From NCBI GenBank assembly GCA_965223835.1, contig CBDCXQ010000001.1, positions 606,845 through 670,844 on the forward strand: a stretch of DNA of 64,000 nucleotides, read 5' to 3'. The notes under the pieces are model-generated. The model was not told the DNA's origin, searched no databases, and saw only the letters and a program-made list of their open reading frames with translations. Positions 4,333 to 39,960 of the stretch are shown here, one piece after another. Both the position numbers and the translations under genes were made by a program. Source of the stretch: Phototrophicaceae bacterium. GTDB lineage: Bacteria > Chloroflexota > Anaerolineae > Aggregatilineales > Phototrophicaceae. Position 1 is the first letter of the stretch; the number at the start of each line of letters is the position of its first letter.

Positions 4333-4434
4333 GATGTTGCTCCCTGTTTTTTCATTGGTTGTTCCCACTCCACTATACTGGCAGTTTGCACGAACCAAGT
4401 ATAAACGATGCGCAAAAGCCACTTTGTAAGTTGA

Positions 4435-4463
4435 TCGCCAGCCGAGTCGTTGCTGGTTATAAT
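4435..4463 (+). promoter_or_regulatory. Candidate sigma70-type promoter for the TIR-WD40 gene
   Basis: TCGCCA (4435-4440), 17-nt spacer, perfect TATAAT (4458-4463), about 35 nt upstream of ATG 4499. GAGGA lies 7 nt before the ATG. Confidence 0.35.
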
Positions 4464-4498
4464 TGCAACCGCCGTTCGACACCACTGAGGATCACCAC

Positions 4499-7471
4499 AT
4501 GACTGATGTGTTCATCTCCTATTCTCGTCAAGACGATGAATTTGCCAAACGCTTGACCAACGCCCTGAAGAAACAGGAACGCGATGTCTGGATTGACTGG
4601 GAGGACATCCCCCGCGCGGCAGACTGGCTCAACGAGATTTATGCCGGGGTCGAAAGCGCTGATACATTCTTATTCATCGTGACACAGCACTCGTTGACTA
4701 GCGAGATCTGCAATTACGAGGTCGCCCACGCCCGCAAACACAACAAACGCATCGTACCGCTCATTCGTCAGCGGATTGAAGGCGACCTTGAAGCGCTGGT
4801 TAAAGGCCAATGGATGGACACGACCTGGGAGCAAACGGCCCGCGAAAACTGGCAGCAGATCGGACACCTTAACTGGATTTTCTTCGAGGATGACGAGAAG
4901 TTTGATGTCGAATTTGCGGCGCTGACCGAAACGTTGCAAACCGACATCGAACATGTCAACTTGCATACCCGATTGCTGGTGCGGGCGCGTGAATGGGAAA
5001 GCCGAGATAAGAACGCCGGTTTTCTGCTTACTGGAGACGAGATAAGCAGCGCGGAAGATTGGCTGCAACTGGCTGAAGCTGGTAGCAAAACTCCTGAGCC
5101 GACTCAACTTCATTGTGATTACATCCAGCAGAGCCGAGCACGCGAACAGGCCGAAAAACGGCTCCTGCGCAACCTCCGTCGGACGACGATCATTGCCGTA
5201 GTGATAGGTGCCATTGCAATTATTGCGACGATTGCATCGTTTTTCCTGTTTCAGCTGTCGGAAGTTCAGCGGGCCGAGGCGGAACGGGCCCAGGCACTGG
5301 CGGAAGATCGTGGTAATCAGGCTTCCAGCGTAGCGCTGGCCGCCAATGCACGCAATCTTATCAATGACGCTGAAACCGGGCTGGGCCTGACACTGGCAAT
5401 TGCCGCTTATGAAACCTATGATCCGCCGCTCGCCGATGTGCAGCAAACTCTGGCACGCGCTATTTATGGTCCCAATGCTCTTTATCGTCTCAGCGAACAC
5501 ACAAAATCCGTGTTGGATGTCGCTTTCAACCCGGATGGTCGCACCGGCTACTCAGTGGCATCCGATGGCGCACTCATCTTCTGGGATCTAAATTCCGGGA
5601 CGATGCTCAACGAAGTCACCTTTGCCGACAATCTGGTCGCCAATAATGTAGCTGTCAGCCCGGACGGCACGCAACTGGTTGTTTCGCTATTTGACAATTC
5701 GTTGCGCCTGTTGGATGCGACGGAAGGTAGCGAGGTTGCCACCTTGACCGGGCATGATGACCTGGTTATGCAGGTGGTCTTCAGTCCTGATGGCAGCCGG
5801 TTGCTCTCCGGCGGGCTGGACCGTACCCTACGCCTGTGGGATGTGGCGACGGGTGAAGAACTGCAACGCATCGACAGCCCTGGCGCGATACTGAATCTGG
5901 CCTTTTCGCCGGATGGTCGGCTAGCGGTAACTGGTTCGGGTGACAGTATCCTCACTGGCTCTGAGTTTCAACGGGAAATTGACCGCACTGTACGGGTGTG
6001 GAACTTGCGGACCGGGTCGGAAATGCAAAAATTCACGCCCAACTCCGGGTTTGTGCGAGCTGTCGCCTTCAGCCCGGATGGCAGCAACGTAGTGGCGGGA
6101 ACCTGGAACTCAGGTGACAATGGGCGGTTGCACCTATGGGACATTACGTCGGGAGACAGGCAAAACATTTTTTTCGGGCACACGGACATCATTACCAATG
6201 TGGCTTTCAGCCCGGATGGTCAGCGTCTACTTTCAACTTCCTGGGACCGCTCTTTGCGCGTGTGGGACATCGCCACCAGCCTGGAAATCCAGCGTTTTCA
6301 AGGTCATCGGGACCGTGTGCTGTCGATGGCGCTGAGCGCGAATGGGGAATATGTTCTGACAGGCACGGGCAATGCCGGAAATGACGTACCTGACCCTGAC
6401 ATTGATCTGGCGGTTGATCAAGTTGTCTGGTTATGGGATCTGGAAAGCCGCGCGCAGATTCATCTGCTGGAAGGGCATGACGATTGGGTATGGGGTGTCG
6501 ATATCAGTCCCGATAGTATCCTGGCGGCATCGGGTTCCGGCCCCTTAAGGCCCCCGGCGCTCGATTCCAGTGTGCGCATCTGGGATGTCGCCACCGGGGA
6601 GCAAATTCGGCGACTGGGCGGACATACCGATACCGTGCATGCGGTACGCTTCAGCCCGGATGGGGCGCTACTGGCATCGGCCAGTTGGGATGATACGGTG
6701 CGCATCTGGGAGGTGGCAAGCGGCGACAGACTCATCACTTACGATAGGCACACCGACAATGTGCTCGGCGTAACCTTCAGTCACGATGGTGCAACCATTT
6801 TTTCAGCGTCCAGCGACAAGACCATTCACATGTGGGATGTCGCCTCAGGTGACGAGATCAAGCGCTTTGAGGGGCACACGGGCGCGGTTAACAGTGTCGA
6901 TCTCAGCTCGGATGGCATGCAGATCCTGACCGCTTCCGATGACCGCACCCTGCGTCTGTGGGATGTTGAGACTGGCGAACCGATCAGGCAATTCATCGGA
7001 CATTCCGACCGCATCAATGATGCGATTTTTAGCCCCGATGGCACGCGCCTGATATCCACCTCGTGGGATACTTCCGTGCGCGAATGGGATGTCGCTACGG
7101 GCGAGGAAATTCGCCAATATATCGGGCACAATGGTCCGGTGTTTGGTGTGGATTACAGCCCGGATGGTCGAATCGCAATGACGGCTTCGGCAGATCTGAC
7201 TATTCGCCTGTGGAACACAGCAACCGGCCTCGAGATTCGGCGGTTCGAAGGACATACCAACTGGATACTCAGTGTGTTGTTCAGCCCGGATGGTAACTTC
7301 GCTGTGTCCGGCGCGGAAGATAATACCGTTCGCTCATGGCGTGTGGAAAGCACACTGGACGGTCTGGTGGCGTGGGCGCATAATAACCGCTACGTCCCGG
7401 AACTAACCTGCGCTCAACGTGAACTCTATAATGTTGAGCCATTGTGCCAGGAATATACCGTGGCATCCTGA
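4499..7471 (+). CDS. TIR domain / single TM helix / 14x WD40-repeat protein
   Basis: N-terminal MTDVFISYSRQDDEFAKRL...ADTFLFIVTQHSLTSEICNYEVAHARKHNKRIVPL is a TIR_2-like domain with a conserved Glu. The TM segment is RRTTIIAVVIGAIAIIATIASFFLF. I counted 14 repeats of the form (F/V)SPDG...(L/V)R(L/V/I)WD, and the Cys-pair tail ELTCAQRELYNVEPLC follows. Confidence 0.9.
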   Translation: MTDVFISYSRQDDEFAKRLTNALKKQERDVWIDWEDIPRAADWLNEIYAGVESADTFLFIVTQHSLTSEICNYEVAHARKHNKRIVPLIRQRIEGDLEALVKGQWMDTTWEQTARENWQQIGHLNWIFFEDDEKFDVEFAALTETLQTDIEHVNLHTRLLVRAREWESRDKNAGFLLTGDEISSAEDWLQLAEAGSKTPEPTQLHCDYIQQSRAREQAEKRLLRNLRRTTIIAVVIGAIAIIATIASFFLFQLSEVQRAEAERAQALAEDRGNQASSVALAANARNLINDAETGLGLTLAIAAYETYDPPLADVQQTLARAIYGPNALYRLSEHTKSVLDVAFNPDGRTGYSVASDGALIFWDLNSGTMLNEVTFADNLVANNVAVSPDGTQLVVSLFDNSLRLLDATEGSEVATLTGHDDLVMQVVFSPDGSRLLSGGLDRTLRLWDVATGEELQRIDSPGAILNLAFSPDGRLAVTGSGDSILTGSEFQREIDRTVRVWNLRTGSEMQKFTPNSGFVRAVAFSPDGSNVVAGTWNSGDNGRLHLWDITSGDRQNIFFGHTDIITNVAFSPDGQRLLSTSWDRSLRVWDIATSLEIQRFQGHRDRVLSMALSANGEYVLTGTGNAGNDVPDPDIDLAVDQVVWLWDLESRAQIHLLEGHDDWVWGVDISPDSILAASGSGPLRPPALDSSVRIWDVATGEQIRRLGGHTDTVHAVRFSPDGALLASASWDDTVRIWEVASGDRLITYDRHTDNVLGVTFSHDGATIFSASSDKTIHMWDVASGDEIKRFEGHTGAVNSVDLSSDGMQILTASDDRTLRLWDVETGEPIRQFIGHSDRINDAIFSPDGTRLISTSWDTSVREWDVATGEEIRQYIGHNGPVFGVDYSPDGRIAMTASADLTIRLWNTATGLEIRRFEGHTNWILSVLFSPDGNFAVSGAEDNTVRSWRVESTLDGLVAWAHNNRYVPELTCAQRELYNVEPLCQEYTVAS

Positions 7472-29087: not shown

Positions 29088-30203
29088 TTAATTTGTGCTT
29101 TGGTAGGGGCGTTCCAGCGCCGCGTGCCACACGTCCAGCACTGCACGGGGCTGACCATCGCCGGTGTAGAAGCCGGTATCGCGCCACACCGCTGCCAGAT
29201 CACCACCGCCGATTTGCTCATACAGTCGGTCATAATCGCGTAGTACGAAATTAACGATAAAGCGCACGTCATGTGCATCCGCTGCTGCCAGCAGGTCGGA
29301 GATGTAGTTCGCCTGCTTTTGTGGGTTACTGGGCATGACCAGCGTGTCGTTGAACACCGAAAGCGTCTCGGCGGGATACCCGGTCTCGGTGATGGCAATC
29401 GGCTTGTCGCTGAGCGCGAACAGATCTGTGAACAGGGTGTCAGGAAGTGGGGCGGTCATATAGCGCGTCATAAACGGATACAGCGAAATGGCGTAATAAT
29501 CGCTGAAGGGCATGAGGTCGGCGAAAGCGGCTCGCTGGGCGGCAGGGTCAGGTTCATCGCGGTAGCCTGTCAGCAGATCCACGCCAAACACCGAGGCGAA
29601 AATAGGCAGGTCAGGGTAATCCTGCTTCAGGCGCACATACGTCTCGTGGTGGAGTTCCAGATAGCCCGGCCAGTCCGCCGGATTGTTCGTGACCAGCAAA
29701 TTGACCTCAATGCCAATCGCCAGATAGTCGGGCTGGAAGAACTCGATTGCGCGAACCGCATGATTGTAAAAGGCGGTTTTAATGTCGGGATGGGTAAAAT
29801 CGTAGGTGTCCCAGGGTGCCGGCAGCGGCATATCACCTGCGCTACCCCGATACGGCGCTAAGCCATTGCGGTCAATGTTGATGGGGGTCAGCGACAGGAA
29901 CACCTCATGGTCGGGTGGGGTGCGTTCGATGCGGCCCTGCCAGTCACCGCGATATTCCAGGGCGTAATCATCGCCCGCCAGCGCTTCCGGCCAGGGAATG
30001 CCGTCGTCAAAATGGTGGGCGATGATGTCAGCATCAGTGGTGATGTGGTCATAAACCCAGTTGACGGCACTGAGGCTGATCTCGTACGGGAAGGGCGTAA
30101 ATCCCAGCCGATAATGACGTGGCGACGTGTTCTCCTGAGCGGCGATAGATTGAATACCGAGCAACAGGAAAACAACGATTAGAATCCAGCGGCGGTGATA
30201 CAT
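29088..30203 (-). CDS. Secreted hypothetical protein, clan GH-A-like TIM-barrel candidate
   Basis: Signal peptide MYHRRWILIVVFLLLGIQSIAAQ and a nucleophile-like motif KPIAITETGYPAE. Confidence 0.4.
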   Translation of the reverse strand: MYHRRWILIVVFLLLGIQSIAAQENTSPRHYRLGFTPFPYEISLSAVNWVYDHITTDADIIAHHFDDGIPWPEALAGDDYALEYRGDWQGRIERTPPDHEVFLSLTPINIDRNGLAPYRGSAGDMPLPAPWDTYDFTHPDIKTAFYNHAVRAIEFFQPDYLAIGIEVNLLVTNNPADWPGYLELHHETYVRLKQDYPDLPIFASVFGVDLLTGYRDEPDPAAQRAAFADLMPFSDYYAISLYPFMTRYMTAPLPDTLFTDLFALSDKPIAITETGYPAETLSVFNDTLVMPSNPQKQANYISDLLAAADAHDVRFIVNFVLRDYDRLYEQIGGGDLAAVWRDTGFYTGDGQPRAVLDVWHAALERPYQSTN

Positions 30204-30322: not shown

Positions 30323-30342
30323 GCGACCAAAGACTACTGACT
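30323..30342 (-). repeat. Solo copy of the 20-nt core of the repeat that flanks the four-helix-bundle gene
   Basis: Minus strand AGTCAGTAGTCTTTGGTCGC here versus AGTCAATAGTCTTTGGTCAC at 37913-37932: 18/20 identical, same strand. It overlaps the TAG stop of the PLP-enzyme gene. Confidence 0.5.
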
Positions 30343-31452
30343 TAAAGCCTGCGCAAGATCAGCGATCAGGTCATCAGCGTTTTCCAGGCCAACGGATAGT
30401 CTAAGCAGATTCTCTGGCGTAGTCCCGGTTGTTTCGATGGAGGCCCGATGTTCGATCAGGCTGTGGGTTCCGCCAAAGCTGGTCGCCCTCGTAAACAACT
30501 TGACTTTCGCGGCGACTCCCATTGCTTCTTCCTGTCCACCCTTGACCTGAACCGAAAGCATCCCACCGAAGGCTTGCATCTGCCGCTGGGCGATTTCATG
30601 GCCGGGATGACTCGGCAAGCCGGGATAGAGTACGGATTCGACCTGGGGATGGTCGGCCAGGAATTGGGCCACTTTGAGCGCGTTATCGGCATGGGCACGC
30701 ACGCGGTAGGGCAGTGTTTGGATGCCGCGCAGGGTCAGCCAGCTCTCAAATGGCGAGGGGACCGCACCGCCGATCTTTTGAATCATGCGCAGGCGCTCGA
30801 ACAGTTCACTTTCTTCGCGGGCCACAACGATTCCGCCCAGCGCATCGGAATGCCCGGCCAGGTATTTAGTCGTCGCATGAATGACGAAATCCGCCCCCAG
30901 TGCCAGCGGTTGTTGCAGGACGGGTGTCGCCATCGTGTTATCGACTGCTAAGTACGCGTCGCCCGCGTGGGTGACAGCGGCGATCTTTTGAATGTCCGTT
31001 ACGCGAATCAGCGGATTGGTGGGTGATTCCAGGATGACCAATCTGGTATTGGGTTGGATAGCTTGGGCAACGGCGGTAGGGTCGCTGGTATCGACGAATG
31101 TGACATCGAGTCCCCAGGGGCCGAAGATGTCGGTCATGATGACGCGAATGCCGAAATACAGGTCACTGGATGAAACGACATGATCGCCCGCTTGCAACGC
31201 TTGCAACAGGCTCATGGTCGCCACGGAGCCAGACCCAAAGGCCGCGGCCTGAACACCGCCTTCCAGTTCGCACAGGGCGGTTTCCAGCGCTGTCCGGTTA
31301 GGGTTGCCATAACGCCCATACACATATTCCAGCGGGTAACTGCCGTCCGGGGCGCGTTCAAAGGTGGTGGAGAGGTAAATCGGCTGGGCGACTGCGCCAC
31401 TGGCCGGGTCGATATGGTGCCCGGCATGGATGGCCTGCGTTTCAATTTTCAT
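30334..31452 (-). CDS. Cys/Met-metabolism PLP-dependent enzyme (cystathionine gamma-synthase / beta-lyase family)
   Basis: MKIETQAIHAGH N-terminus and the PLP-lysine block HATTKYLAGHSD. Start ATG 31452 overlaps the upstream stop (ATGA); the track start at 31569 is an extension. Confidence 0.85.
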   Translation of the reverse strand: MKIETQAIHAGHHIDPASGAVAQPIYLSTTFERAPDGSYPLEYVYGRYGNPNRTALETALCELEGGVQAAAFGSGSVATMSLLQALQAGDHVVSSSDLYFGIRVIMTDIFGPWGLDVTFVDTSDPTAVAQAIQPNTRLVILESPTNPLIRVTDIQKIAAVTHAGDAYLAVDNTMATPVLQQPLALGADFVIHATTKYLAGHSDALGGIVVAREESELFERLRMIQKIGGAVPSPFESWLTLRGIQTLPYRVRAHADNALKVAQFLADHPQVESVLYPGLPSHPGHEIAQRQMQAFGGMLSVQVKGGQEEAMGVAAKVKLFTRATSFGGTHSLIEHRASIETTGTTPENLLRLSVGLENADDLIADLAQALSQ

Positions 31453-32027
31453 GAGGTTGCCTTTCGCTGATTGTATTCCCGGCGCAGCAGGCCGAACTGT
31501 TTGATATTGACGAAGCGGCCATGCTCCCAGCAGCTTTCGCGCCAGATGCCCTCCAGTTGAAAGCCGCATTTGAGCATGACACGCTCGGAAGCGATATTGC
31601 CTTCAGTGCAATCGGCCTGGATGCGGTGAACATCGAGGTTGTCAAAGCTCCATTGGATGACCGCATGGGCGGCTTCAGTCGCGTAACCCTGCCCCCAATG
31701 CGACGGCAGGATGTGATAGCCGATGTCGATATGGCGGTTATCACGCTCCCAGGCATAGTTGCCGCAGGTGCCAATTAATTGATCCGTTTCCGGCAGCGTG
31801 ATCGCCCATTGGACCGACTCCTGCTGATCAAAGGTGTCATTGAGCCAGTCGATCAATCCAATCGCTTTTTCAGGTGTATCTGTTGGCGATTGATTGAGAA
31901 AGCGGAGCACCTCCGGCGAACTGAATAGAGCCATCATCGCCGACGCATCGTCGTGACGGAAGCGGCGCAAACGGAGTCGCTCGGTCGTGAGGGTCGGAAA
32001 GGTGGAAAAATCAAAGCTGCTCGTCAT
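31449..32027 (-). CDS. GNAT N-acetyltransferase (RimJ/RimL-like)
   Basis: TTERLRLRRFRHDDASAMMALFSSPEV, WGQGYATEA and ASERVMLKCGF. Confidence 0.8.
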   Translation of the reverse strand: MTSSFDFSTFPTLTTERLRLRRFRHDDASAMMALFSSPEVLRFLNQSPTDTPEKAIGLIDWLNDTFDQQESVQWAITLPETDQLIGTCGNYAWERDNRHIDIGYHILPSHWGQGYATEAAHAVIQWSFDNLDVHRIQADCTEGNIASERVMLKCGFQLEGIWRESCWEHGRFVNIKQFGLLRREYNQRKATS

Positions 32028-32131: not shown

Positions 32132-34687
32132 CTATGCCCGCAGTTTTGCACCCAGTTGATGTTCGGCTGCCTGGACGATTTTTCGATGAACTTTGGCGAC
32201 TTCTTTGTCTGTCAGCGTCTTTTCATCGGTCTGGTACACCAGATTATACGCCAGACTCTTATGCCCGGCGGGAATCGGTTCACCAGCATAGACATCGAAC
32301 AGCCGCACCTCTTTGAGTAAATCACCACCAGCCTTGACGATCACAGATTCGACCTCAGTTGCGGTCGTCTGATCTGTGACGACCAGCGCGATGTCCTGGT
32401 AAACCGGCGGCGTCACCGGCGCGGGTTTAATGCTGAAGAACTGGTAGTTGATACGGCTCAGCAGCGCATCCAGGTCGAATTCAGCGACCATCACTGGCGC
32501 ATCGGTCAGGCCAAAGTTGCGGGCCACAATCGGATGCAGTTCGCCAAACGGCCCGATTTCCGCATTACCGACGCGCAATATCGCTGAACGGCCCGGATGG
32601 AAGGTCGGGTGAGCGGCACGGGTGAAGTTCACGTTGTCTACCTTGAGCGCCTCAATCAGGCCATCAACAATGCCCTTCAGATCGAAATAATCCAGCAGCG
32701 CATCAGAGACATCACCGGTCCACGTGACGGGCCGCCGCCTGCCGGTCAGCAGCATTGCCAACCGGCGCGGTTCATCCGGCAGCAGTTGCCCTTCGACTGG
32801 CAAATACACATTGCCGATTTCGAATACCTGTTGACTCTCGCGGAATCGGGCATTATGAGCGGCGATATACAGCAGGTTCGTCAACAGCGAATGGCGCATC
32901 ACCGTCTTATCCGGCGCGATGGGATTCGCCAGTTCAACATAGGGCAGAGTGTGATAACCCGCATCACGGTCCGGCGTTAAGAGTGCTTCGCTTTCGGGCG
33001 CGGTGAAGCGATGGCTGATGTTCTCCTGCAAGCCTAATGCCACCAACACATCACGGGTATGTTCTTCGGTTTCCAGCGCGATATTGGCCCATTGCGGTGG
33101 CATGTCATCCGACATGATCGTATCAGGAATTTGATCGTAGCCGTGAATGCGGGCAATCTCTTCAATCAGATCGGCCATGCCCGTAACCGGTTCGTCGCTG
33201 ATGTCCAGGCGATGGTCGGGGGTCACGACATGCAGGGTGTCGCCATTGATCGCCACGTCAAATTCCAGACGTTGGAGAATGGCCGCTGCCTCAGTGATCG
33301 CGAAATCCATGCCCAGAATGCGCTGCACTTCCGCAATGGGAAGATCAACCGCAACCGGTTCCGGCTTTAATGGATACTCGTCTATCACACCGGCAGCGAT
33401 CTGACCGCTACCCGTTTGCCGCATCAGTTCGATGCCGCGTTGGACACCTAGAATTGCCTGACTGGGATGCACGCCCCGGCTGAAGCGCACACCCGCGTCG
33501 GTAATCACCTTCTGCGATTGCATCGTGCGGCGGATATTAATGAAGTTCCAGTTCGCCGCTTCCAGCAATACGTTGGTGGTGTCATCTGAAATTTCAGTTT
33601 CTGCGCCACCAATGACCCCGCCGAGACTCAGAATACCAGCATCATCCAGCAGAATGATGTTATGGGGTTCCAGTTCGCGTTTGACTTCATCCAGCGTAGC
33701 CAGCGTTTCACCGGGCTGTGCCAACCGCGTGGTGATGGTCGGCGGTTTGCCACCCGACCGTTCCAGGAGCCTGTCATAATCAAAGGCGTGCAAGGGTTGA
33801 CCGAGTTCGAACGTGATGTAATTGGTCACGTCCACGATGTTGTTGATAGGCCGCTGCCCAACCAGTGTCAGTCGATGCTGCATCCATTGGGGCGAGGGCT
33901 GCACCTGCGTATTCCGCAGCAGCGTAAGGGTGAAGCGCTGGTTGTATTCTGGGCTTTCGATTTTAATGGCCGCCTGCCCCTTGATGCTCGGACCTTCCGC
34001 CACGAAATCATAGGAAGGATAGCGCATTGCTTTGCCCAGCAAGGCGGCAACTTCGCGGGCGACGCCGACGATGCTGAAGCAACGTGCCAGGTTGGGCGTC
34101 AGTTCAATATCGAGGATATAGTCGCCGAGGATGTCCTGGAACGGCGTACCGGGTACATAATCAGGATGATGATCCAACAGCAAAATGCCCTCATGCTCTT
34201 CTGAGATGCCCAGTTCTTTTTCCGAACACACCATGCTCCGGTTGGGAATGCCGCGCAGCGCCCGCTCCTTGAGGATCATGCGTTTGGGTTCATCGCTGTG
34301 CCCATCCCAGACCTCGGCCCCCTCTTTAGCGAACGGTGTCCACAGGGGGGTATCCAGCGGCCCTTGATCTTTATAGTCGAGCAAATTGGGTGCGCCGGTG
34401 ACGCATTGTTCGAGATCTTCGTCGCCATAATCGACCATTGCCAGCACGAGCCGGTCAGCATCGGGGTGTGACTTGACTTCGCGGATGGCACCCAGCAGGA
34501 TTCTCTTACGGTCCCATACCAGATGATCGGAGGGCGGCACGCGGATTCCTTCGACATGCTGCTGCGGGACACCAATGTAGCGGATTTCGCCGACTTCCAG
34601 TCCGGCCAATGTCAGTCGCTCGGCCAATAGTTCTACGGGGATGTCAATGTCAACATAGTCTTTCAGCCACGAAACGGGTACTAGCAT
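32132..34687 (-). CDS. pheT: Phenylalanine--tRNA ligase beta subunit
   Basis: MLVPVSWLKDYVDIDIPVELLAERLTLAGLEV N-terminus, 851 aa, with B3/4- and B5-type blocks. Confidence 0.95.
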   Translation of the reverse strand: MLVPVSWLKDYVDIDIPVELLAERLTLAGLEVGEIRYIGVPQQHVEGIRVPPSDHLVWDRKRILLGAIREVKSHPDADRLVLAMVDYGDEDLEQCVTGAPNLLDYKDQGPLDTPLWTPFAKEGAEVWDGHSDEPKRMILKERALRGIPNRSMVCSEKELGISEEHEGILLLDHHPDYVPGTPFQDILGDYILDIELTPNLARCFSIVGVAREVAALLGKAMRYPSYDFVAEGPSIKGQAAIKIESPEYNQRFTLTLLRNTQVQPSPQWMQHRLTLVGQRPINNIVDVTNYITFELGQPLHAFDYDRLLERSGGKPPTITTRLAQPGETLATLDEVKRELEPHNIILLDDAGILSLGGVIGGAETEISDDTTNVLLEAANWNFINIRRTMQSQKVITDAGVRFSRGVHPSQAILGVQRGIELMRQTGSGQIAAGVIDEYPLKPEPVAVDLPIAEVQRILGMDFAITEAAAILQRLEFDVAINGDTLHVVTPDHRLDISDEPVTGMADLIEEIARIHGYDQIPDTIMSDDMPPQWANIALETEEHTRDVLVALGLQENISHRFTAPESEALLTPDRDAGYHTLPYVELANPIAPDKTVMRHSLLTNLLYIAAHNARFRESQQVFEIGNVYLPVEGQLLPDEPRRLAMLLTGRRRPVTWTGDVSDALLDYFDLKGIVDGLIEALKVDNVNFTRAAHPTFHPGRSAILRVGNAEIGPFGELHPIVARNFGLTDAPVMVAEFDLDALLSRINYQFFSIKPAPVTPPVYQDIALVVTDQTTATEVESVIVKAGGDLLKEVRLFDVYAGEPIPAGHKSLAYNLVYQTDEKTLTDKEVAKVHRKIVQAAEHQLGAKLRA

Positions 34688-34781
34688 GATTTTGTCCTCA
34701 GCTTTCAGTTACGAGTTATCAGTCTACAGTTGCCAGTTAAAGCATCTGGTTGTTCACATCTGTACAAGATTTGTGCGCCGT

Positions 34782-36011
34782 CTATCGATCCAAATTGGGC
34801 ATTATGACATCCAGTATCTTGTCCGCGACGATCTCATTGCCACTGGGAGTCAGATGATTAAAGTCAATCCAGAGATCACCAGCCTGATTTTCCAACACGT
34901 TGCCCAGGTAATGGAGGTGATCGTTGGTGGCGGCGGCAGCTTCGGCCTGTGCATAAACCACCCGAAATAATTCTGGCAGGCCGCCCGGCATCTCCCAGAG
35001 GAAACGTTGTTCCTCATCTGTTGCTGGTTCGTCGTGCATCACCAGCACCGGTTGCCAGAAGGCGATAAACTCAAATTCATATTCATCTGCCAGTAGTGTC
35101 GCCGTGTTGATATTGGTCAGGTAAACTGCCATAATCGAGTCAATGAATTCTGTGCTGTACGATCCGAGTGCTGGCCCAACCTCATTTGTAGTCGGGTTGG
35201 CGACGATATTCTGCACCAGACGAAAAGTCGCGCTTTGGCGCAGCCATTCGACCAGAGGCGATGCTGGTGCGGCTTCGGCAGTTGGTGGACCGAACGCCAG
35301 ATTACCCTGTACCGCCTGCTCAATTGCGTCGAGATAAAAATGGGTGCCCGCCTCATTGGTGAGGTTGGCAATGGTGACATCATTCGCGCCGTCGTAGAAA
35401 ATCACCATGTCAGGTACATTGCCCTGCTGCAACTCCAGCAGCAACTTGATGATGCTCTGGGTCGAGTTGAAGGCGACATCAGCCTGATTAATCACGCAAA
35501 CGTTGGTATCCAGCCCTGCCAGACCAGCCTGTAAATAGGCCGGGATTGTGCCCCAGTCGGGCGATCCAAAACCCCACATGGTTGAGCCGCCAAACACGAA
35601 AATGCGGTAACTTTCGTCGCTACAGTTCGACTCTGGAGTTTGCCGGATGCCGTCCTGATTGATGTTGATATAATCACCCGTGAACGGCCAGGTGCGCCAG
35701 ACGATATACGGTTGGTAGTTCCAGTGATCGACGATTTGCATATGTTCGTCCCAGTAAGCTCGTGCCCAATCCTGTTCGTGATAATAGGCCAGCGACAATT
35801 GCTTCTGTTTGAACCTTTCCACTTGCTCGGCGATTGATGCTGCTTCCGGCTCTTGCTCGACCATTGTCAGCGCGAGGCTTGCACCCACTTCGATCACCAA
35901 CACGATGATAAGGCTATTCAGCAACATGATGCCCGTGATCTGATAGAGTCGAGCAACCCGCTGCCAGACTGCTGGCGGTGTGACTGGCGAAGCGCCATTG
36001 TCATTACTCAT
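34782..36011 (-). CDS. Membrane-anchored SGNH/GDSL-like hydrolase
   Basis: TM anchor ITGIMLLNSLIIVLVIEVGASLAL. SGNH-like blocks YRIFVFGGSTMWGFG, MVIFYDGANDV and a late DFNHLTP. ATG 36011 overlaps the channel gene stop by 8 nt. Confidence 0.6.
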   Translation of the reverse strand: MSNDNGASPVTPPAVWQRVARLYQITGIMLLNSLIIVLVIEVGASLALTMVEQEPEAASIAEQVERFKQKQLSLAYYHEQDWARAYWDEHMQIVDHWNYQPYIVWRTWPFTGDYININQDGIRQTPESNCSDESYRIFVFGGSTMWGFGSPDWGTIPAYLQAGLAGLDTNVCVINQADVAFNSTQSIIKLLLELQQGNVPDMVIFYDGANDVTIANLTNEAGTHFYLDAIEQAVQGNLAFGPPTAEAAPASPLVEWLRQSATFRLVQNIVANPTTNEVGPALGSYSTEFIDSIMAVYLTNINTATLLADEYEFEFIAFWQPVLVMHDEPATDEEQRFLWEMPGGLPELFRVVYAQAEAAAATNDHLHYLGNVLENQAGDLWIDFNHLTPSGNEIVADKILDVIMPNLDR

Positions 36012-36396
36012 CTTCGCTGTCTGTGTGCCTCGCCTCGTTGTCGTTGCGTTGTCGGAAGCCGGGCAGCAATGGCTGTTGATCGGCAATCAATGCGATGAAA
36101 CCACCCAGAATGCCCAGCCCGACCAGGATGTAGAACACCGTGAAGAGCTTGCCGCCACTGGTCTGAGGCGTCAGGTCGCCATAGCCGACCGTCGTCAGCG
36201 TTACGACCGTGAAATACAATGCATCAACCCATGACCAGTTCTCCACTACCCGGTAAAAAACCATGCCAGCTATCACCACAAAGACAGTGGTATAAACCAG
36301 TCCGCGCGTTTCCGGCTCTTTCAACGCTTGCCAGGCACCGCGCCGCACACGCCTGGACATGAGCCAGATGGCGAACAGGATTGGGATAACAGGCAT
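36004..36396 (-). CDS. Two-TM mini potassium channel (KcsA-like pore-only protein)
   Basis: Selectivity filter TLTTVGYGDLTP flanked by two TM helices; 130 aa with no RCK or other cytoplasmic domain. Confidence 0.8.
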   Translation of the reverse strand: MPVIPILFAIWLMSRRVRRGAWQALKEPETRGLVYTTVFVVIAGMVFYRVVENWSWVDALYFTVVTLTTVGYGDLTPQTSGGKLFTVFYILVGLGILGGFIALIADQQPLLPGFRQRNDNEARHTDSEDE

Positions 36397-36406
36397 GTAT
36401 GTGTTC

Positions 36407-37441
36407 CTAGAACTGCTCTAAAAAGCGCAGATCGTTGCCCCAGAAGTAGCGGATGTCTTCGATGCCGTGCTTCAACATGGTGGCGCGTTCTGGCCCCATG
36501 CCGAAGGCGAAACCGCTCCATTCACTGGGATCATAGCCGCCGTTGCGCAATACATTGGGATGCACCATGCCCGACCCGGCGATCTCCAGCCAACCCGTAT
36601 ATTTGCAGATGCGGCAGCCAGCGCCGCCACACAGAAAACATTCGACATCCACCTCCATGCTCGGTTCGGTGAAGGGGAAGTATGACGCACGGAACCGTAC
36701 CTGGACATCAGCACCATACATCCGCCGGGCGAACTCGGCAATCGTCCCCTTCAGATCGGTCATGCGAATGTTGCGCCCCACTGCCAGCCCTTCAACCTGA
36801 TTGAACTGGACCTCACTGCGGGCGGTGATTTGCTCAAAGCGATAGCACATCCCCGGCAAAATCACGCGGATGGGTTTGGTGCCGTTATCACCCAGTTCAT
36901 GCATTGCCCGGATCTGACCCGGCGAGGTGTGGGTACGCAAGATGACGTCCGATTTGGTCGTATAGAACGTGTCCTGCATATCACGTGCGGGATGATGGGG
37001 CGGGAAGTTCAAGAGTTGGAAGTTGTATTCATCGGTTTCGACATCGCGGCTGCGATACACCTGAAAGCCCATCTCCGCCCAGATGTCGGCGTACAATCGC
37101 AGCGTTTGGGTCGCTGGATGCAAGCCACCGGTTGTGCGCGGACGACCGGGCAAAGTGATGTCGATTTCCCCTTCTTCCAGATCCTGTGCGAGTTCCTGGG
37201 CAGCAACCAACGCTTGCTGGTTTTCCAGCGCAGTTGTCAGTAGATTCTTGATCTCGTTGGCGCGTTTGCCAAAGCTGGCGCGTTGCTCTGCTGGCAGCTT
37301 GCCGGTGCTGCGCAGCATGTTTGTGATCTTGCCGTTGCGCCCCAGGTATTCGATCTGCCACTCATGTAGCGTTTCGCTGTCGGTGATGGTTGCCAGCGCT
37401 TCCTGTGCTTCGACATAGTGTGTTTCCAGTTGTTCGAGCAT
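36407..37441 (-). CDS. pheS: Phenylalanine--tRNA ligase alpha subunit
   Basis: FPPHHPARDMQDTFY, YFPFTEPSMEVDV and GFAFGMGPERATMLKHGIEDIRYFW. Confidence 0.95.
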   Translation of the reverse strand: MLEQLETHYVEAQEALATITDSETLHEWQIEYLGRNGKITNMLRSTGKLPAEQRASFGKRANEIKNLLTTALENQQALVAAQELAQDLEEGEIDITLPGRPRTTGGLHPATQTLRLYADIWAEMGFQVYRSRDVETDEYNFQLLNFPPHHPARDMQDTFYTTKSDVILRTHTSPGQIRAMHELGDNGTKPIRVILPGMCYRFEQITARSEVQFNQVEGLAVGRNIRMTDLKGTIAEFARRMYGADVQVRFRASYFPFTEPSMEVDVECFLCGGAGCRICKYTGWLEIAGSGMVHPNVLRNGGYDPSEWSGFAFGMGPERATMLKHGIEDIRYFWGNDLRFLEQF

Positions 37442-37458
37442 GGTTAGTCTCCAGTTTT

Positions 37459-37484
37459 TAGTCTCTTGTCATTAGTCTCTTGTC
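37459..37484 (-). repeat. Downstream arm of the 26-nt inverted repeat flanking the four-helix-bundle gene (also two 14-nt tandem units)
   Basis: Minus-strand RNA UGACAAGAGACUAAUGACAAGAGACU. It can pair with 37900-37925 at 21/26 positions (19 Watson-Crick, 2 G-U), aligned by hand. Confidence 0.65.
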
Positions 37485-37502
37485 ATTAGTCATACTGTGT
37501 TA

Positions 37503-37865
37503 TCAGTGCTTAGAAGTGGTTAAGCTTTTTATCAGACCGGCGAGCATACGAATTACCTCTCCTATGCTGTCATCAAGCTGTTGATATTGATCTGGTGTCA
37601 GAAAGTTCAAATCATGTGCGAGCAAAATATGATATTCAACCTCATAGGCCGATCCCATCGCAATACGTAGAAAGCGTGCCAGTTCCGCATCACTGCCGCG
37701 CCCAGAGCCTTCAGCAATGTTTGCTGGAATAGAAGCCACTGCTCGTTTCAGTTGACTGGATAAACCAAACTGTTCATCTTTAGGGAAGTTCGCTGTCGCC
37801 CGATAAACTTCGAGTGTCAATTGATGCGCCTTGTGCCAGACACTTAGCTTTTTGTAGTCGCCCAT
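37503..37865 (-). CDS. Four-helix-bundle protein (23S rRNA intervening-sequence protein / Avd-like family)
   Basis: YKKLSVWHKAHQLTLEVYRATANFPKDEQFGLSSQLKRAVASIPANIAEGSGRGS..ELARFLRIAMGSAYEVEYHILLA is the hallmark pattern of this family. GGTGGAG lies upstream of the ATG. Confidence 0.85.
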   Translation of the reverse strand: MGDYKKLSVWHKAHQLTLEVYRATANFPKDEQFGLSSQLKRAVASIPANIAEGSGRGSDAELARFLRIAMGSAYEVEYHILLAHDLNFLTPDQYQQLDDSIGEVIRMLAGLIKSLTTSKH

Positions 37866-37899
37866 TTTTGTACTCCACCTGGGACACTATCTTTGCTTT

Positions 37900-37925
37900 T
37901 CACTAAAGACTTGTGACCAAAGACT
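37900..37925 (-). repeat. Upstream arm of the 26-nt inverted repeat flanking the four-helix-bundle gene
   Basis: Minus-strand RNA AGUCUUUGGUCACAAGUCUUUAGUGA, itself two related 12-mers. It starts 14 nt after the T-box terminator U-tract. Confidence 0.65.
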
Positions 37926-37939
37926 ATTGACTACCCAAC

Positions 37940-37979
37940 AAAAAACGCCCTCATCCCCAAAACATCAGGGACGAGAGCG
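37940..37979 (-). terminator. Intrinsic terminator of the T-box leader
   Basis: Minus-strand RNA CGCUCUCGUCCCU-GAUGUUUU-GGGGAUGAGGGCG-UUUUUU. The stem is 13 bp including 3 G-U pairs, followed by U6. Confidence 0.75.
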
Positions 37980-38215
37980 CTTGTGAGCGATTCTCCCGCG
38001 GTACCACCCTGGTTGGCCGCTGTGCGACCCACCTCATTGTGTCCGTTAACGCTGGAACCAGCGGAGCAGGCTACTGCCGGACTATCTGGTCACGGGTTCA
38101 CCTGTCAGCTCAGGAGTGAATTTTGCAGCGATTGACCTGCCGGGGCTTGCAGTCTTTGGCCCCTGGCTCCCTGGAGGCAATACCTGCCACAAACTGTCTC
38201 CATCATTGCCTTTCA
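37940..38215 (-). promoter_or_regulatory. T-box riboswitch leader, probable Phe (UUC) specifier
   Basis: Minus-strand AACCAGGGTGGTACCGCG (37997-38014) contains the invariant T-box core GGGUGGUACCGCG just 5' of the terminator. The candidate specifier loop is AAAUUCAC, with UUC at 38118-38120 followed by a purine and closed by CAGGGAG/CUCCUG. pheS lies downstream. Confidence 0.8.
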
Positions 38216-38221
38216 GTGGTT

Positions 38222-38251
38222 ATTATGCCGATGGTGGCGGCGGCTTGTCAA
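38222..38251 (-). promoter_or_regulatory. Candidate promoter of the T-box/pheS transcription unit
   Basis: On the minus strand: TTGACA (38251-38246), 18-nt spacer, CATAAT (38227-38222). Confidence 0.55.
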
Positions 38252-38377: not shown

Positions 38378-38406
38378 GGAACGGATTGTGAAAGGTGGTG
38401 TATTCC

Positions 38407-38616
38407 ATGTCTGAAAAATCCGTAATCGAGTCTGGTGTCGTGTATTCACGACAAGAAGCAGCCGAAGCGCTGGGCATCAGCCTCAGTACGCTGAAACGAC
38501 TCATTAAAAACGGACACCTCAAGGTGAGTAAGCCAAATGGTATGCGCCGCGTGTTCATTACTGGTGAGAGCATTTTAGCAATGCTGAGTGATACCGCAGT
38601 GGAGAAAGGTGCATAG
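38407..38616 (+). CDS. Excisionase/MerR-like helix-turn-helix (HTH_17-type) DNA-binding protein
   Basis: YSRQEAAEALGISLSTLKRLIKNGHLKVSKPNGMRRVFI is the typical HTH_17 pattern. AAGGTGG lies 8 nt before ATG 38407. Confidence 0.65.
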   Translation: MSEKSVIESGVVYSRQEAAEALGISLSTLKRLIKNGHLKVSKPNGMRRVFITGESILAMLSDTAVEKGA

Positions 38617-39213: not shown

Positions 39214-39420
39214 TATTGGAATATTGTCTGCGTACATGCATATAAATTATGTTATTGGTGGGGAAGTTCGTGCGCGAACAGGGGTGTTGGCTCAACTTCC
39301 CCGCTGAACTTCACAGTCCTAACCGGAATTTAAAGTGCTATTAGCCAGATTTGCGTTATACTTAATGTGAAGGATGGTGCAAACGCACCATAGATGGAGG
39401 TAACATTTTCAGGAGGCATC

Positions 39421-39960
39421 ATGTCTTACGGACGTGTATTGCTACTTAATGGCAGTACCTGGGAACCCTTATCGGTGATTAGCGTCCCACGGGCAATTAA
39501 TCTGGTGCTGGCCGATAAAGCGATTGTGGTTGAACAAAGCGGCCAGTTCTTGCGGACGATCAACTCACGTTTTCCAGTGCCGTCGGTTATTGCGCTGCGG
39601 ACGTTTATCAATGTGCCGCGCCGCCGTGCCCACTGGAGCCGCAAAGGCGTTCTGGTTCGCGACAACTTCACCTGCATTTATTGTGGAGCCAAGCCGGGCA
39701 CGATTCAAAAAGGCAAGGTGCTGGCGAAAAGTGACCTGACCGTTGATCACATTATCCCGCGCTCACGTAATGGCAAAGACCACTGGACCAACACGGCCTG
39801 TGCCTGTTATAACTGTAACCATCGCAAAGGTAATCGCTTGCCCAATGAGGCAGGGATGAAACTGCGGTGGGAGCCGAAGACACCACGAACCAGTTATCTG
39901 GTGATCGCTATCGGTAGCGGACCCGATCGGTGGAAACAATATATCGAGATTGAACGGTGA
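39421..39960 (+). CDS. HNH endonuclease-family protein (conserved ~180-aa type)
   Basis: The HNH core is FTCIYCGAKP...LTVDHIIPRSRNGKDHWTNTACACYNCNHRKGNRLPNEAGM. CAGGAGG precedes ATG 39421. Confidence 0.85.
   Translation: MSYGRVLLLNGSTWEPLSVISVPRAINLVLADKAIVVEQSGQFLRTINSRFPVPSVIALRTFINVPRRRAHWSRKGVLVRDNFTCIYCGAKPGTIQKGKVLAKSDLTVDHIIPRSRNGKDHWTNTACACYNCNHRKGNRLPNEAGMKLRWEPKTPRTSYLVIAIGSGPDRWKQYIEIER

Follow-up and report, generated by a model that had tools for sequence, protein, structure and literature searches.

In a 64,000-nt stretch of the genome of a Phototrophicaceae bacterium (contig CBDCXQ010000001.1, positions 606,845 to 670,844; hereafter the window, with positions counted from its first letter), a gene for a small four-helix-bundle (4HB) protein of family PF05635 lies between the terminator of a phenylalanine T-box leader and pheS, bracketed by two inverted arrays of 7-nt repeats. 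We consider it probable that this is a hairpin-bracketed cassette of the intervening-sequence (IVS) type resident in the leader of the pheS operon, namely a promoterless PF05635 gene with its own Shine-Dalgarno (SD) sequence enclosed by two inverted 7-nt arrays. The initial annotation of the window had placed a 120-amino-acid four-helix-bundle gene at 37503-37865, between the T-box terminator and pheS, and matches to PF05635, TIGR02436 and RF00230 confirmed that placement. It had also described the flanks as 26-nt inverted repeats; the flanks are indeed complementary, but the arms are inverted arrays of a 7-nt unit and not a unique 26-nt repeat. The parts of the cassette and its immediate borders are the following.

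37943 to 37982, minus strand: intrinsic terminator hairpin and T-run of the T-box, with an 18-pair stem and a 4-nt loop, then TTTGTTGGGT.
37898 to 37932, minus strand: 5' arm of five tandem heptamers (AGTCaat AGTCttt gGTCaca AGTCttt AGTGaaa), read from the sequence and found by Tandem Repeats Finder (TRF) and motif search.
37873 to 37879, minus strand: SD of the 4HB gene, GGUGGAG, 7 nt 5' of its ATG, read from the sequence.
37503 to 37865, minus strand: 4HB protein gene (PF05635 / TIGR02436, 120 amino acids), identified by profile matches and homologous structures.
37446 to 37491, minus strand: 3' arm of about 6.5 heptamers (GACTaat GACaaga GACTaat GACaaga GACTaaa aACTgga GACT), read from the sequence and found by TRF.
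36407 to 37441, minus strand: pheS, the downstream host gene, with its ATG at 37441 (PF01409, E=3e-91; PF02912, E=2e-17).

Upstream of the 4HB gene the repeats take the form (AGTCnnn)n and begin 5-6 nt past the terminator T-run; downstream they take the inverse form (nnnGACT)n, terminate 4 nt ahead of the pheS ATG and hold the pheS SD (GGAG, 37452-37449) within their last two units. TRF reported a period of 14 at 37458-37491 (100% matches) and at 37905-37931. The motif AGTCNNNAGTCNNNAGTC, allowing at most 2 mismatches, occurred 13 times in the window against 2.2 expected, a count that 0 of 100 shuffles reached, and 8 of the 13 occurrences fell within the two arms. Scanning the window at a strict lag of 7 in sliding windows gave no array, the threshold being too high for units with three variable positions. 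The initial annotation had the 5' arm exactly right (37925-37900); the sequence it quoted for the 3' arm at 37484-37459 actually occupies 37485-37460, one base off, and the distance from its end to the pheS SD is 7 nt instead of 17 nt, with 18 nt to the AUG.

The two 26-mers that had been aligned by hand do pair, with an RNAduplex energy of -22.2 kcal/mol, in what proved to be one register of several. In a fold of 521 nt, positions 37931-37908 pair with 37468-37491 with probabilities mostly of 0.8-1.0, a register 14 nt off the earlier one; such a shift, and the existence of several registers, follow from each arm being a tandem array. This helix is present in the minimum-free-energy structure, and the predicted stem enclosing the 4HB gene comprises about 20 bp in four segments. 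For the 61-nt flanks RNAduplex gave -32.4 kcal/mol, and 19 of 2,000 dinucleotide shuffles were as good. Positions 37459-37453, between the array helix and the pheS SD, are mostly unpaired in the ensemble, and the SD itself, with predicted unpaired probabilities of 0.31, 0.35, 0.92 and 0.63 along GGAG, is predicted to be mostly accessible.

The encoded protein matches PF05635 over profile positions 1-105 of 106 (E=5.3e-40; 136.4 bits against a cut-off of 33.8) and TIGR02436 (E=3.4e-39; 133.4 bits against a cut-off of 24), and it is homologous to the pentameric four-helix bundle XCC0516 (PDB 2GSC, E=3.5e-18) and to 2RLD (E=1.5e-8). The motif region G-x2-R-x3-S-x3-N-x2-E(G) is present in the alignment of 4HB orthologues. 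The family is very common, with 1,555 matches at the 90%-clustered level for the window protein as query, and its genes have been found wedged between cas genes (PMC3936711). None of the PADLOC models of anti-phage defence families matched the 4HB protein. To our knowledge, PF05635 proteins are small helical bundles and no catalytic activity is known for any of them. Avd, the accessory protein of diversity-generating retroelements (DGRs), has a homologous four-helix-bundle fold and is pentameric. We rejected a DGR/Avd identity for the window gene because its scores lie under both curated cut-offs (PF22296, E=8e-7, 30 bits against 40; NF033474, E=2.5e-8, 34.2 bits against 80) and a Pfam scan of six neighbouring open reading frames (ORFs) showed no reverse-transcriptase domain; no template/variable repeat pair was noticed around the gene. 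We know of no description of Avd genes bracketed by heptamer arrays.

To see the cassette in related genomes, we collected 80 pheS loci from one-per-species genomes, all Anaerolineae and, where named more precisely, Aggregatilineales/Phototrophicaceae; further loci were added via the closest 4HB proteins, and the classification took in 85 loci (denoted here by L and a number). Most orthologous T-box-pheS loci lack the cassette, as the initial annotation's reading of an inserted element would have it: the leader is empty, with no 4HB gene, array or hairpin, in 58 of the 76 loci with a recognisable T-box sequence, and in most empty leaders the distance from that sequence to the ATG is only 75-160 nt. 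In ten loci a 4HB gene stands between terminator and pheS (the window, L001, L002, L003, L006, L029, L034, L163, L165 and L166), and every one of them has the same kind of arms, which bears out the arm conservation that the same reading implied. Arrays stand at both gene ends in 10/10 carriers, the (AGTCnnn)-type array within a few bases of the terminator T-run and the inverse array reaching the pheS start, where its last units hold GGAG or GAGG (10/10). In all orthologues these SD-bearing 3' units lie out of reach of the shorter 5' array.

The unit differs by locus and the opposite arm matches it: CnnCAGT in the 5' arm and ACTGnnG in the 3' arm of L029, TnnCAGT and ACTGnnA in L002 and L163, and CnnTAGT and ACTAnnG in the window. 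An RNAduplex matrix of 5' against 3' flanks of the ten loci gave a modest within-locus advantage (-47 versus -39 kcal/mol); because arrays of different loci share cores, we replaced this matrix by consensus-heptamer and permutation tests. Individual leaders depart from the common layout. L001 is the closest relative, with 93% identity in pheS; between its 4HB stop and its 3' array (4364-4989) there are some 600 nt of additional AT-rich sequence in which no gene is called, and the arms are about 1 kb apart. In L034, a second 5'-type array stands directly past the 4HB stop and is followed by a 3' array of eight perfect GACTACC units (~1880-2084), which shows that arrays can grow rapidly, 7 nt at a time, and possibly that cassettes nest. 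A few of the leaders without the cassette are longer and filled with other sequence; three of them (L033, 2496-3001; L055, 2451-3001; L056, 2445-3001) carry a different small ORF of about 130-150 amino acids, which is hydrophobic and probably encodes a membrane protein; no heptamer arrays were found in these three.

Eight of the ten carriers group together in the pheS tree, in a clade that also encloses L004 (empty) and L005; L029 and L034 form a second clade. L005 retains both arms and a 21-residue C-terminal remnant of the 4HB protein (E=1.4e-5), and decay of the ORF is also seen among the carriers, with a frameshift in L003 and a truncated C-terminus in L029. Between 4HB orthologues, nonsynonymous divergence (dN) is 0.07-0.33 and synonymous divergence (dS) is saturated in most comparisons; their ratio, omega, is 0.03-0.14 where measurable and 0.025 between the window and L001. 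The ORF is under strong purifying selection at the pheS locus, and low dN with saturated dS means that selection has long kept the gene in the pheS leader. The cassette at this locus is old and mainly vertically inherited and not a recent mobile insertion; the initial annotation had entertained a mobile or excisable RNA element. Nor is the upstream neighbourhood a recent mobile insertion, since relatives share it: an HTH_17 excisionase-like gene (38395-38616, plus strand) and an HNH endonuclease gene (39394-39960, plus strand), divergent and upstream of the T-box, are both kept in L163 and L165, and the HTH_17 gene is also found in L001 and L166.

Reduced forms of the cassette occupy the same leader elsewhere. 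Gene-less hairpins of inverted arrays are present in L010, L024 and L066, a long hairpin with less regular repeats in L037, and a lone 3'-type array ahead of the pheS ATG in L032 and L036. The window holds such a lone array before pheT.

34705 to 34739, minus strand: lone 3'-type array (AACTGgc AACTGta GACTGat AACTCgt AACTGaa agCTGag GAC), found by motif search and TRF.
32132 to 34687, minus strand: pheT, with its ATG at 34687.

This array ends in the pheT SD, directly 5' of the ATG, and has neither a partner array nor a 4HB gene. Lone 3'-type arrays also precede pheT in L001, L002, L003, L008, L012, L035, L053 and L076, and in L020 and L046 the pheS-pheT spacer contains a 4HB gene; the array before pheT is probably the scar of a second cassette. 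Taken together, the states look like a decay series from full cassette to remnant, hairpin and lone array, in a direction that we infer, with the 3' array persisting because the following gene has its SD there. A short 5'-type array on the minus strand of the window (GTCagt AGTCttt gGTCgcc AG; 30325-30342) abuts the stop of the gene at 30334..31569 and may be another cassette scar; no clear partner was found before the next gene, which starts at 30203.

Copies of the gene elsewhere in the family carry analogous arms, a further expectation of the initial annotation that held. We scanned metagenome contigs with an alignment of 40 family members, which gave 80 loci at 50-70% identity; viral contigs added 23 and cyanobacterial plasmids gave further loci, and the consensus test covered 106 loci from metagenomes, viral contigs and genomes. 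Their arrays are (nnTCAGC)n upstream with (GCTGAnn)n downstream, or consist of different units. Period-7 arrays of at least three copies were present within 130 nt upstream at 49 of 76 metagenomic loci and downstream at 32 of 76, against a background of 2.5% (1,268 windows), and 7 was the best period in 59 of 64 loci. Helices between arms of one locus scored higher than those between permuted partners (a score of at least 12 in 43% versus 11%, and of at least 16 in 24% versus 2.7%). Arrays stood on both sides in 53 of the 106 loci, and in 32 of these 53 (60%) the 5' consensus heptamer was the reverse complement of the 3' one with at most one mismatch, compared with 8% for permuted partners and 9% for the direct orientation. 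The consensus heptamers comprised 40 distinct sequences, including GGAGAGT, TAGGCTG, GGGAATT, GGTAAGA and TCGGCTT. Protein similarity was correlated with heptamer similarity (Spearman coefficient -0.36), but at 60-70% protein identity only 14% of locus pairs shared a heptamer; with a 60% match between arms against this 14%, arms follow each other far more closely than they follow the protein. The arm architecture is not chance, since it is met again in orthologous loci and throughout the family.

Neighbouring genes are mostly co-directional with the 4HB gene (42 of 49 downstream and 50 of 68 upstream), and the gaps to them have medians of 51 and 66 nt. In a cultured carrier, Nostoc punctiforme PCC 73102, pNPUN01 has an annotated 'four helix bundle protein' gene (NPUN_RS33770) flanked by (CAGGAGT)n and its inverse, the latter running up to the next ATG. 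None of the 20 long family loci tested lies in rRNA; PF05635 genes outside rRNA are the usual situation in the loci sampled, and such a location is nothing exceptional for the family. Two groups of loci have features of their own. L092, L102, L107, L127, L131-L133, L136, L142, L152 and L155 have no clear heptamer arms and share a conserved downstream motif, TTGGTTGCGGCC...GGCCGCGCTAG; in this arm-less subgroup the upstream gene is on the opposite strand, a different family context. In the viral loci L174, L176-L179 and L183-L186, purine-rich, SD-like units (GGAGAGT, GGAGTCT, GGTAAGA) make up the 5' arrays and their CU-rich inverse makes up the 3' arrays, and several viral cassettes point toward the end of an opposite-strand gene.

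How the 4HB gene would be expressed can be read from the elements that precede the terminator.

38222 to 38251, minus strand: sigma-70-like promoter TTGACA-18-CATAAT, with 11/12 consensus matches, directly 5' of the T-box leader.
37964 to 38215, minus strand: T-box leader (RF00230, E=2e-16, 76.1 bits, full-length model match).

The RF00230 alignment puts UUC (Phe) at the specifier position of the leader, the T-box sequence GGUGGUACCGCG is present, and this sequence is kept in 72 of 81 orthologous loci. Between the terminator and the 4HB gene the minus strand showed no promoter-like site, and for this reason the gene is probably expressed only via T-box read-through. Transcription would begin at the promoter 5' of the Phe T-box, and polymerase would reach the cassette only upon read-through of the terminator. 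Once the 3' array has been made, the co-transcribed arrays could pair into an imperfect helix of about 20-24 bp that loops out the 4HB mRNA (~416 nt). RNase III would probably cut this helix, by analogy with the IVSs of 23S rRNA, and so release three RNAs: the leader with the T-box, a 4HB mRNA whose ends are paired, and a pheS mRNA. The distal heptamers of the 3' array, outside the helix, would provide the pheS SD and the host gene would stay translatable. Across loci, period 7, the reverse-complementarity of the arms and the distal SD are conserved and the arm sequence is not, which argues for base pairing over a sequence-specific binding site.

The structural logic of an IVS that the initial annotation recognised, a PF05635 ORF within a loop closed by complementary flanks, holds for this cassette. 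The 23S rRNA IVSs of Leptospira, Coxiella, Brucella and Xanthomonas carry ORFs of the same S23p/PF05635 family in a loop closed by complementary termini. In Coxiella, the terminal stem of 28 bp around the PF05635 ORF is cut on both strands by RNase III, and tandem GACAGAT heptamers lie at the 5' cleavage site of the stem (PMC4990558); ORF-less versions and ORF decay occur among IVSs as well (PMC4990558). The host differs, being helix 45 of 23S rRNA in one case and the T-box-pheS mRNA leader in the other, and in the window cassette the 3' arm additionally carries the SD for the gene that follows. The window ORF has a good SD and is under purifying selection, unlike the Coxiella ORF, which seems to be decaying and not expressed (PMC4990558); RNase III cutting, demonstrated for the Coxiella IVS, is likely here by analogy. 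IVSs are defined by insertion inside a 23S rRNA gene (helix 25 or 45), and the window element sits between the T-box terminator and pheS; Rfam found no rRNA match within the 64-kb window. Not being located in rRNA, the cassette falls outside the IVS class in the strict sense and is a variant of that kind in an mRNA leader. A stem of about 20 bp or more enclosing the element, as in IVSs, is present in the predicted fold.

Several observations weigh against this reading. The arms, which had stood out from dinucleotide shuffles, did not stand out from genomic sequence: 878 of 3,000 random segment pairs of the same spacing from the window (54% GC) equalled the arm energy, the helix being AT-rich and short. 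Because 29% of random pairs match it, the energy alone is weak evidence; the control itself is uninformative, since AT-rich arms are being compared within a GC-rich genome. The fold of the whole region has a z-score of only -1.27. About one third of the sampled family members have no clear arrays. G-U mismatches exceed A-C mismatches by 143 to 114 (p=0.04; earlier count, 31 versus 17), which makes a weak test of RNA against DNA. The length of the unit, 7 nt, is not accounted for by an RNA hairpin cassette.

An alternative that we think unlikely is that the arrays act at the DNA level, as terminal inverted repeats or recombination handles of a mobile cassette, and that RNA pairing is incidental. 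The 4HB gene would then be gained, lost and exchanged by recombination or replication slippage between arrays, a process that may coexist with an RNA role. Patchy presence with clean empty sites, the deletion remnant of L005, the gene-less hairpins and the lone arrays would all be explained, as would L162, where a 69%-identical 4HB protein has AGTC-type arms in an unrelated genomic context. The correlation of protein with heptamer similarity fits joint travel of gene and arms, copy number shifts in 7-nt steps in L034 as it does among Coxiella strains (PMC4990558), and the G-U over A-C asymmetry is just marginal. However, no transposase or recombinase is associated with the cassette. No direct target duplication is evident at its boundaries and the 64-kb window holds no second copy, while L162 has a related cassette in another context. 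At the pheS locus the cassette has mostly passed vertically and dS is saturated; RNase III has been shown to cut IVS stems of this design (PMC4990558); and the match between arms is far tighter than their tracking of the protein. Integron cassettes offer a parallel, with a promoterless ORF that rides host transcription and is bounded by a structured, sequence-variable imperfect palindrome. The integron attC is a single 3' site recombined by integrase, whereas the window cassette has two tandem-heptamer arms, no integrase and no cassette array.

It is quite improbable, in our assessment, that the arrays are binding sites of a regulator, either the 4HB protein itself, a presumed pentamer, or a host RNA-binding protein, that would act on the translation or stability of flanking genes. 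A similar idea has been proposed for the TAACTGA repeats of Beggiatoaceae (PMC4679880), and lone 3'-type arrays in the window and its relatives end at an SD or start codon as those repeats do. Arrays usually have about 3-6 units and homologues of the protein are pentameric (PDB 2GSC), heptamer type correlates with protein similarity, and the paired arrays of Geobacter were interpreted as regulator sites (PMC2700814). The unit, however, is not conserved in sequence: there are 40 consensus heptamers, mixed unit types occur inside single arrays, and orthologous proteins of 65-90% identity are flanked by arms of different units. The conserved features are the period of 7 and arms that are reverse complements, and binding of single-stranded RNA predicts the direct and not the inverted orientation.

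The initial annotation had also suggested that the long-range helix modulates pheS translation, which we now regard as very improbable. The 3' array does extend to the pheS start and include the SD, and alternative 7- or 14-nt registers could in principle bring pairing nearer to it, so that the helix would mask or unmask the ribosome binding site. Yet the helix of the ensemble fold uses 37468-37491 and leaves the seven bases between it and the SD mostly unpaired; translational control of pheS is not favoured because the SD is itself predicted to be mostly unpaired. The SD-bearing units are past the reach of the 5' array in all orthologues, and the same design also precedes unrelated genes. A chance origin of the complementarity, from two low-complexity repeats with no relation to each other, can be practically discounted, for although the energy-based genomic control is unimpressive, such chance is already contradicted by a design present in 10 orthologous loci with co-varying unit sequences and in half of the 106 family loci, where partner-permuted and direct-orientation controls give far lower match rates.

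Tandem heptamers are the most abundant periodic repeat of intergenic regions and their function is not known (bioRxiv 10.1101/309039). Among published examples, the cyanobacterial short tandemly repeated repetitive (STRR) sequences and the TAACTGA repeats share the 7-nt period and units of the type nnYAGYn / nRCTRnn, TAACTGA being of the 3'-arm type; the window units, nnnGACT / AACTGnn, are related and not identical. TAACTGA direct repeats end just ahead of start codons in Beggiatoaceae, Cyanobacteria and Bacteroidetes, where they were proposed as regulator sites, and contain stop codons in all three frames (PMC4679880). Arrays that stop one to a few nucleotides before start codons, copy number that varies in 7-nt steps, and stops in all three frames, one consequence of a 7-nt unit, are common to these repeats and the cassette arms. 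The STRR and TAACTGA repeats differ in having been published as lone direct arrays, and the TAACTGA paper ties them neither to PF05635 genes nor to a partner array of opposite orientation (PMC4679880). A closer parallel comes from Geobacter metallireducens, where 'class 3 global regulator binding sites' with the consensus MTYCTGA x5 occur in pairs: each pair puts one array of about five heptamers on either strand of the spacer between operon genes, the two arrays standing about 80-100 bp apart in two of the pairs, and one 'B' array, Gmet_I301B, is followed by the SD-like AAGGAGAGG (PMC2700814). These paired sites equal the gene-less hairpins of L010 and L024; they were interpreted there as IHF/HU-type sites, with no ORF between the arms and no link to PF05635 (PMC2700814). 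In the limited literature covered we found no paper tying PF05635/S23p genes to inverted heptamer arrays, and the link may exist elsewhere or in database notes.

These parallels suggest a broader interpretation, which we offer tentatively and regard as possible but doubtful. PF05635 genes with inverted period-7 arrays would form a widespread class of operon-resident cassettes of which the rRNA IVSs were the first-noticed members; residues of their decay, gene-less hairpins and lone arrays bearing an SD, would be a major source of intergenic tandem heptamers (STRR, TAACTGA, the Geobacter paired sites and the 'prime-number periodicity' of SPADE); and the 4HB protein would act on period-7 hairpins in processing, protection or propagation. 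If so, rRNA IVSs would be special cases of a general cassette, and elements that earlier work took for binding sites of regulators may instead be hairpins of cassettes, or scars left by them. At the least, this cassette family may be one source of the 7-base repeats found between bacterial genes. A general rule for the family, and a possible origin of intergenic heptamer repeats, is a more interesting outcome than the single locus.

The link between PF05635 and heptamer arrays gives a defined genomic context to an uncharacterised family that includes the DGR protein Avd. It also sets a testable frame: a hairpin free in sequence and fixed in period 7 and self-complementarity, on a cassette that rides operon transcripts and whose 3' arm provides the following gene with its ribosome binding site. 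The T-box-pheS locus provides a natural series of full cassette, remnant, hairpin only, lone array and empty site, and annotation pipelines could mark heptamer arrays as boundaries or scars of cassettes.

Annotation of the leader itself depends on the threshold used. A whole-window Rfam scan at the gathering threshold gave zero matches, and no Rfam family covers the arms; the T-box is absent from this default scan because its 76 bits fall under the gathering score of 93 for RF00230, and it was seen with an E-value threshold. Default Rfam annotation would overlook the T-boxes of this Anaerolineae lineage. Further along the operon, the pheS-pheT spacer (34782-36396, minus strand) contains a gene for a 130-amino-acid K+ channel with two transmembrane segments (PF07885) and a 434-amino-acid GDSL-like gene. 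These two genes are in reversed order in L001 and other relatives have different inserts, and the spacer seems to be a hotspot of gene insertion.

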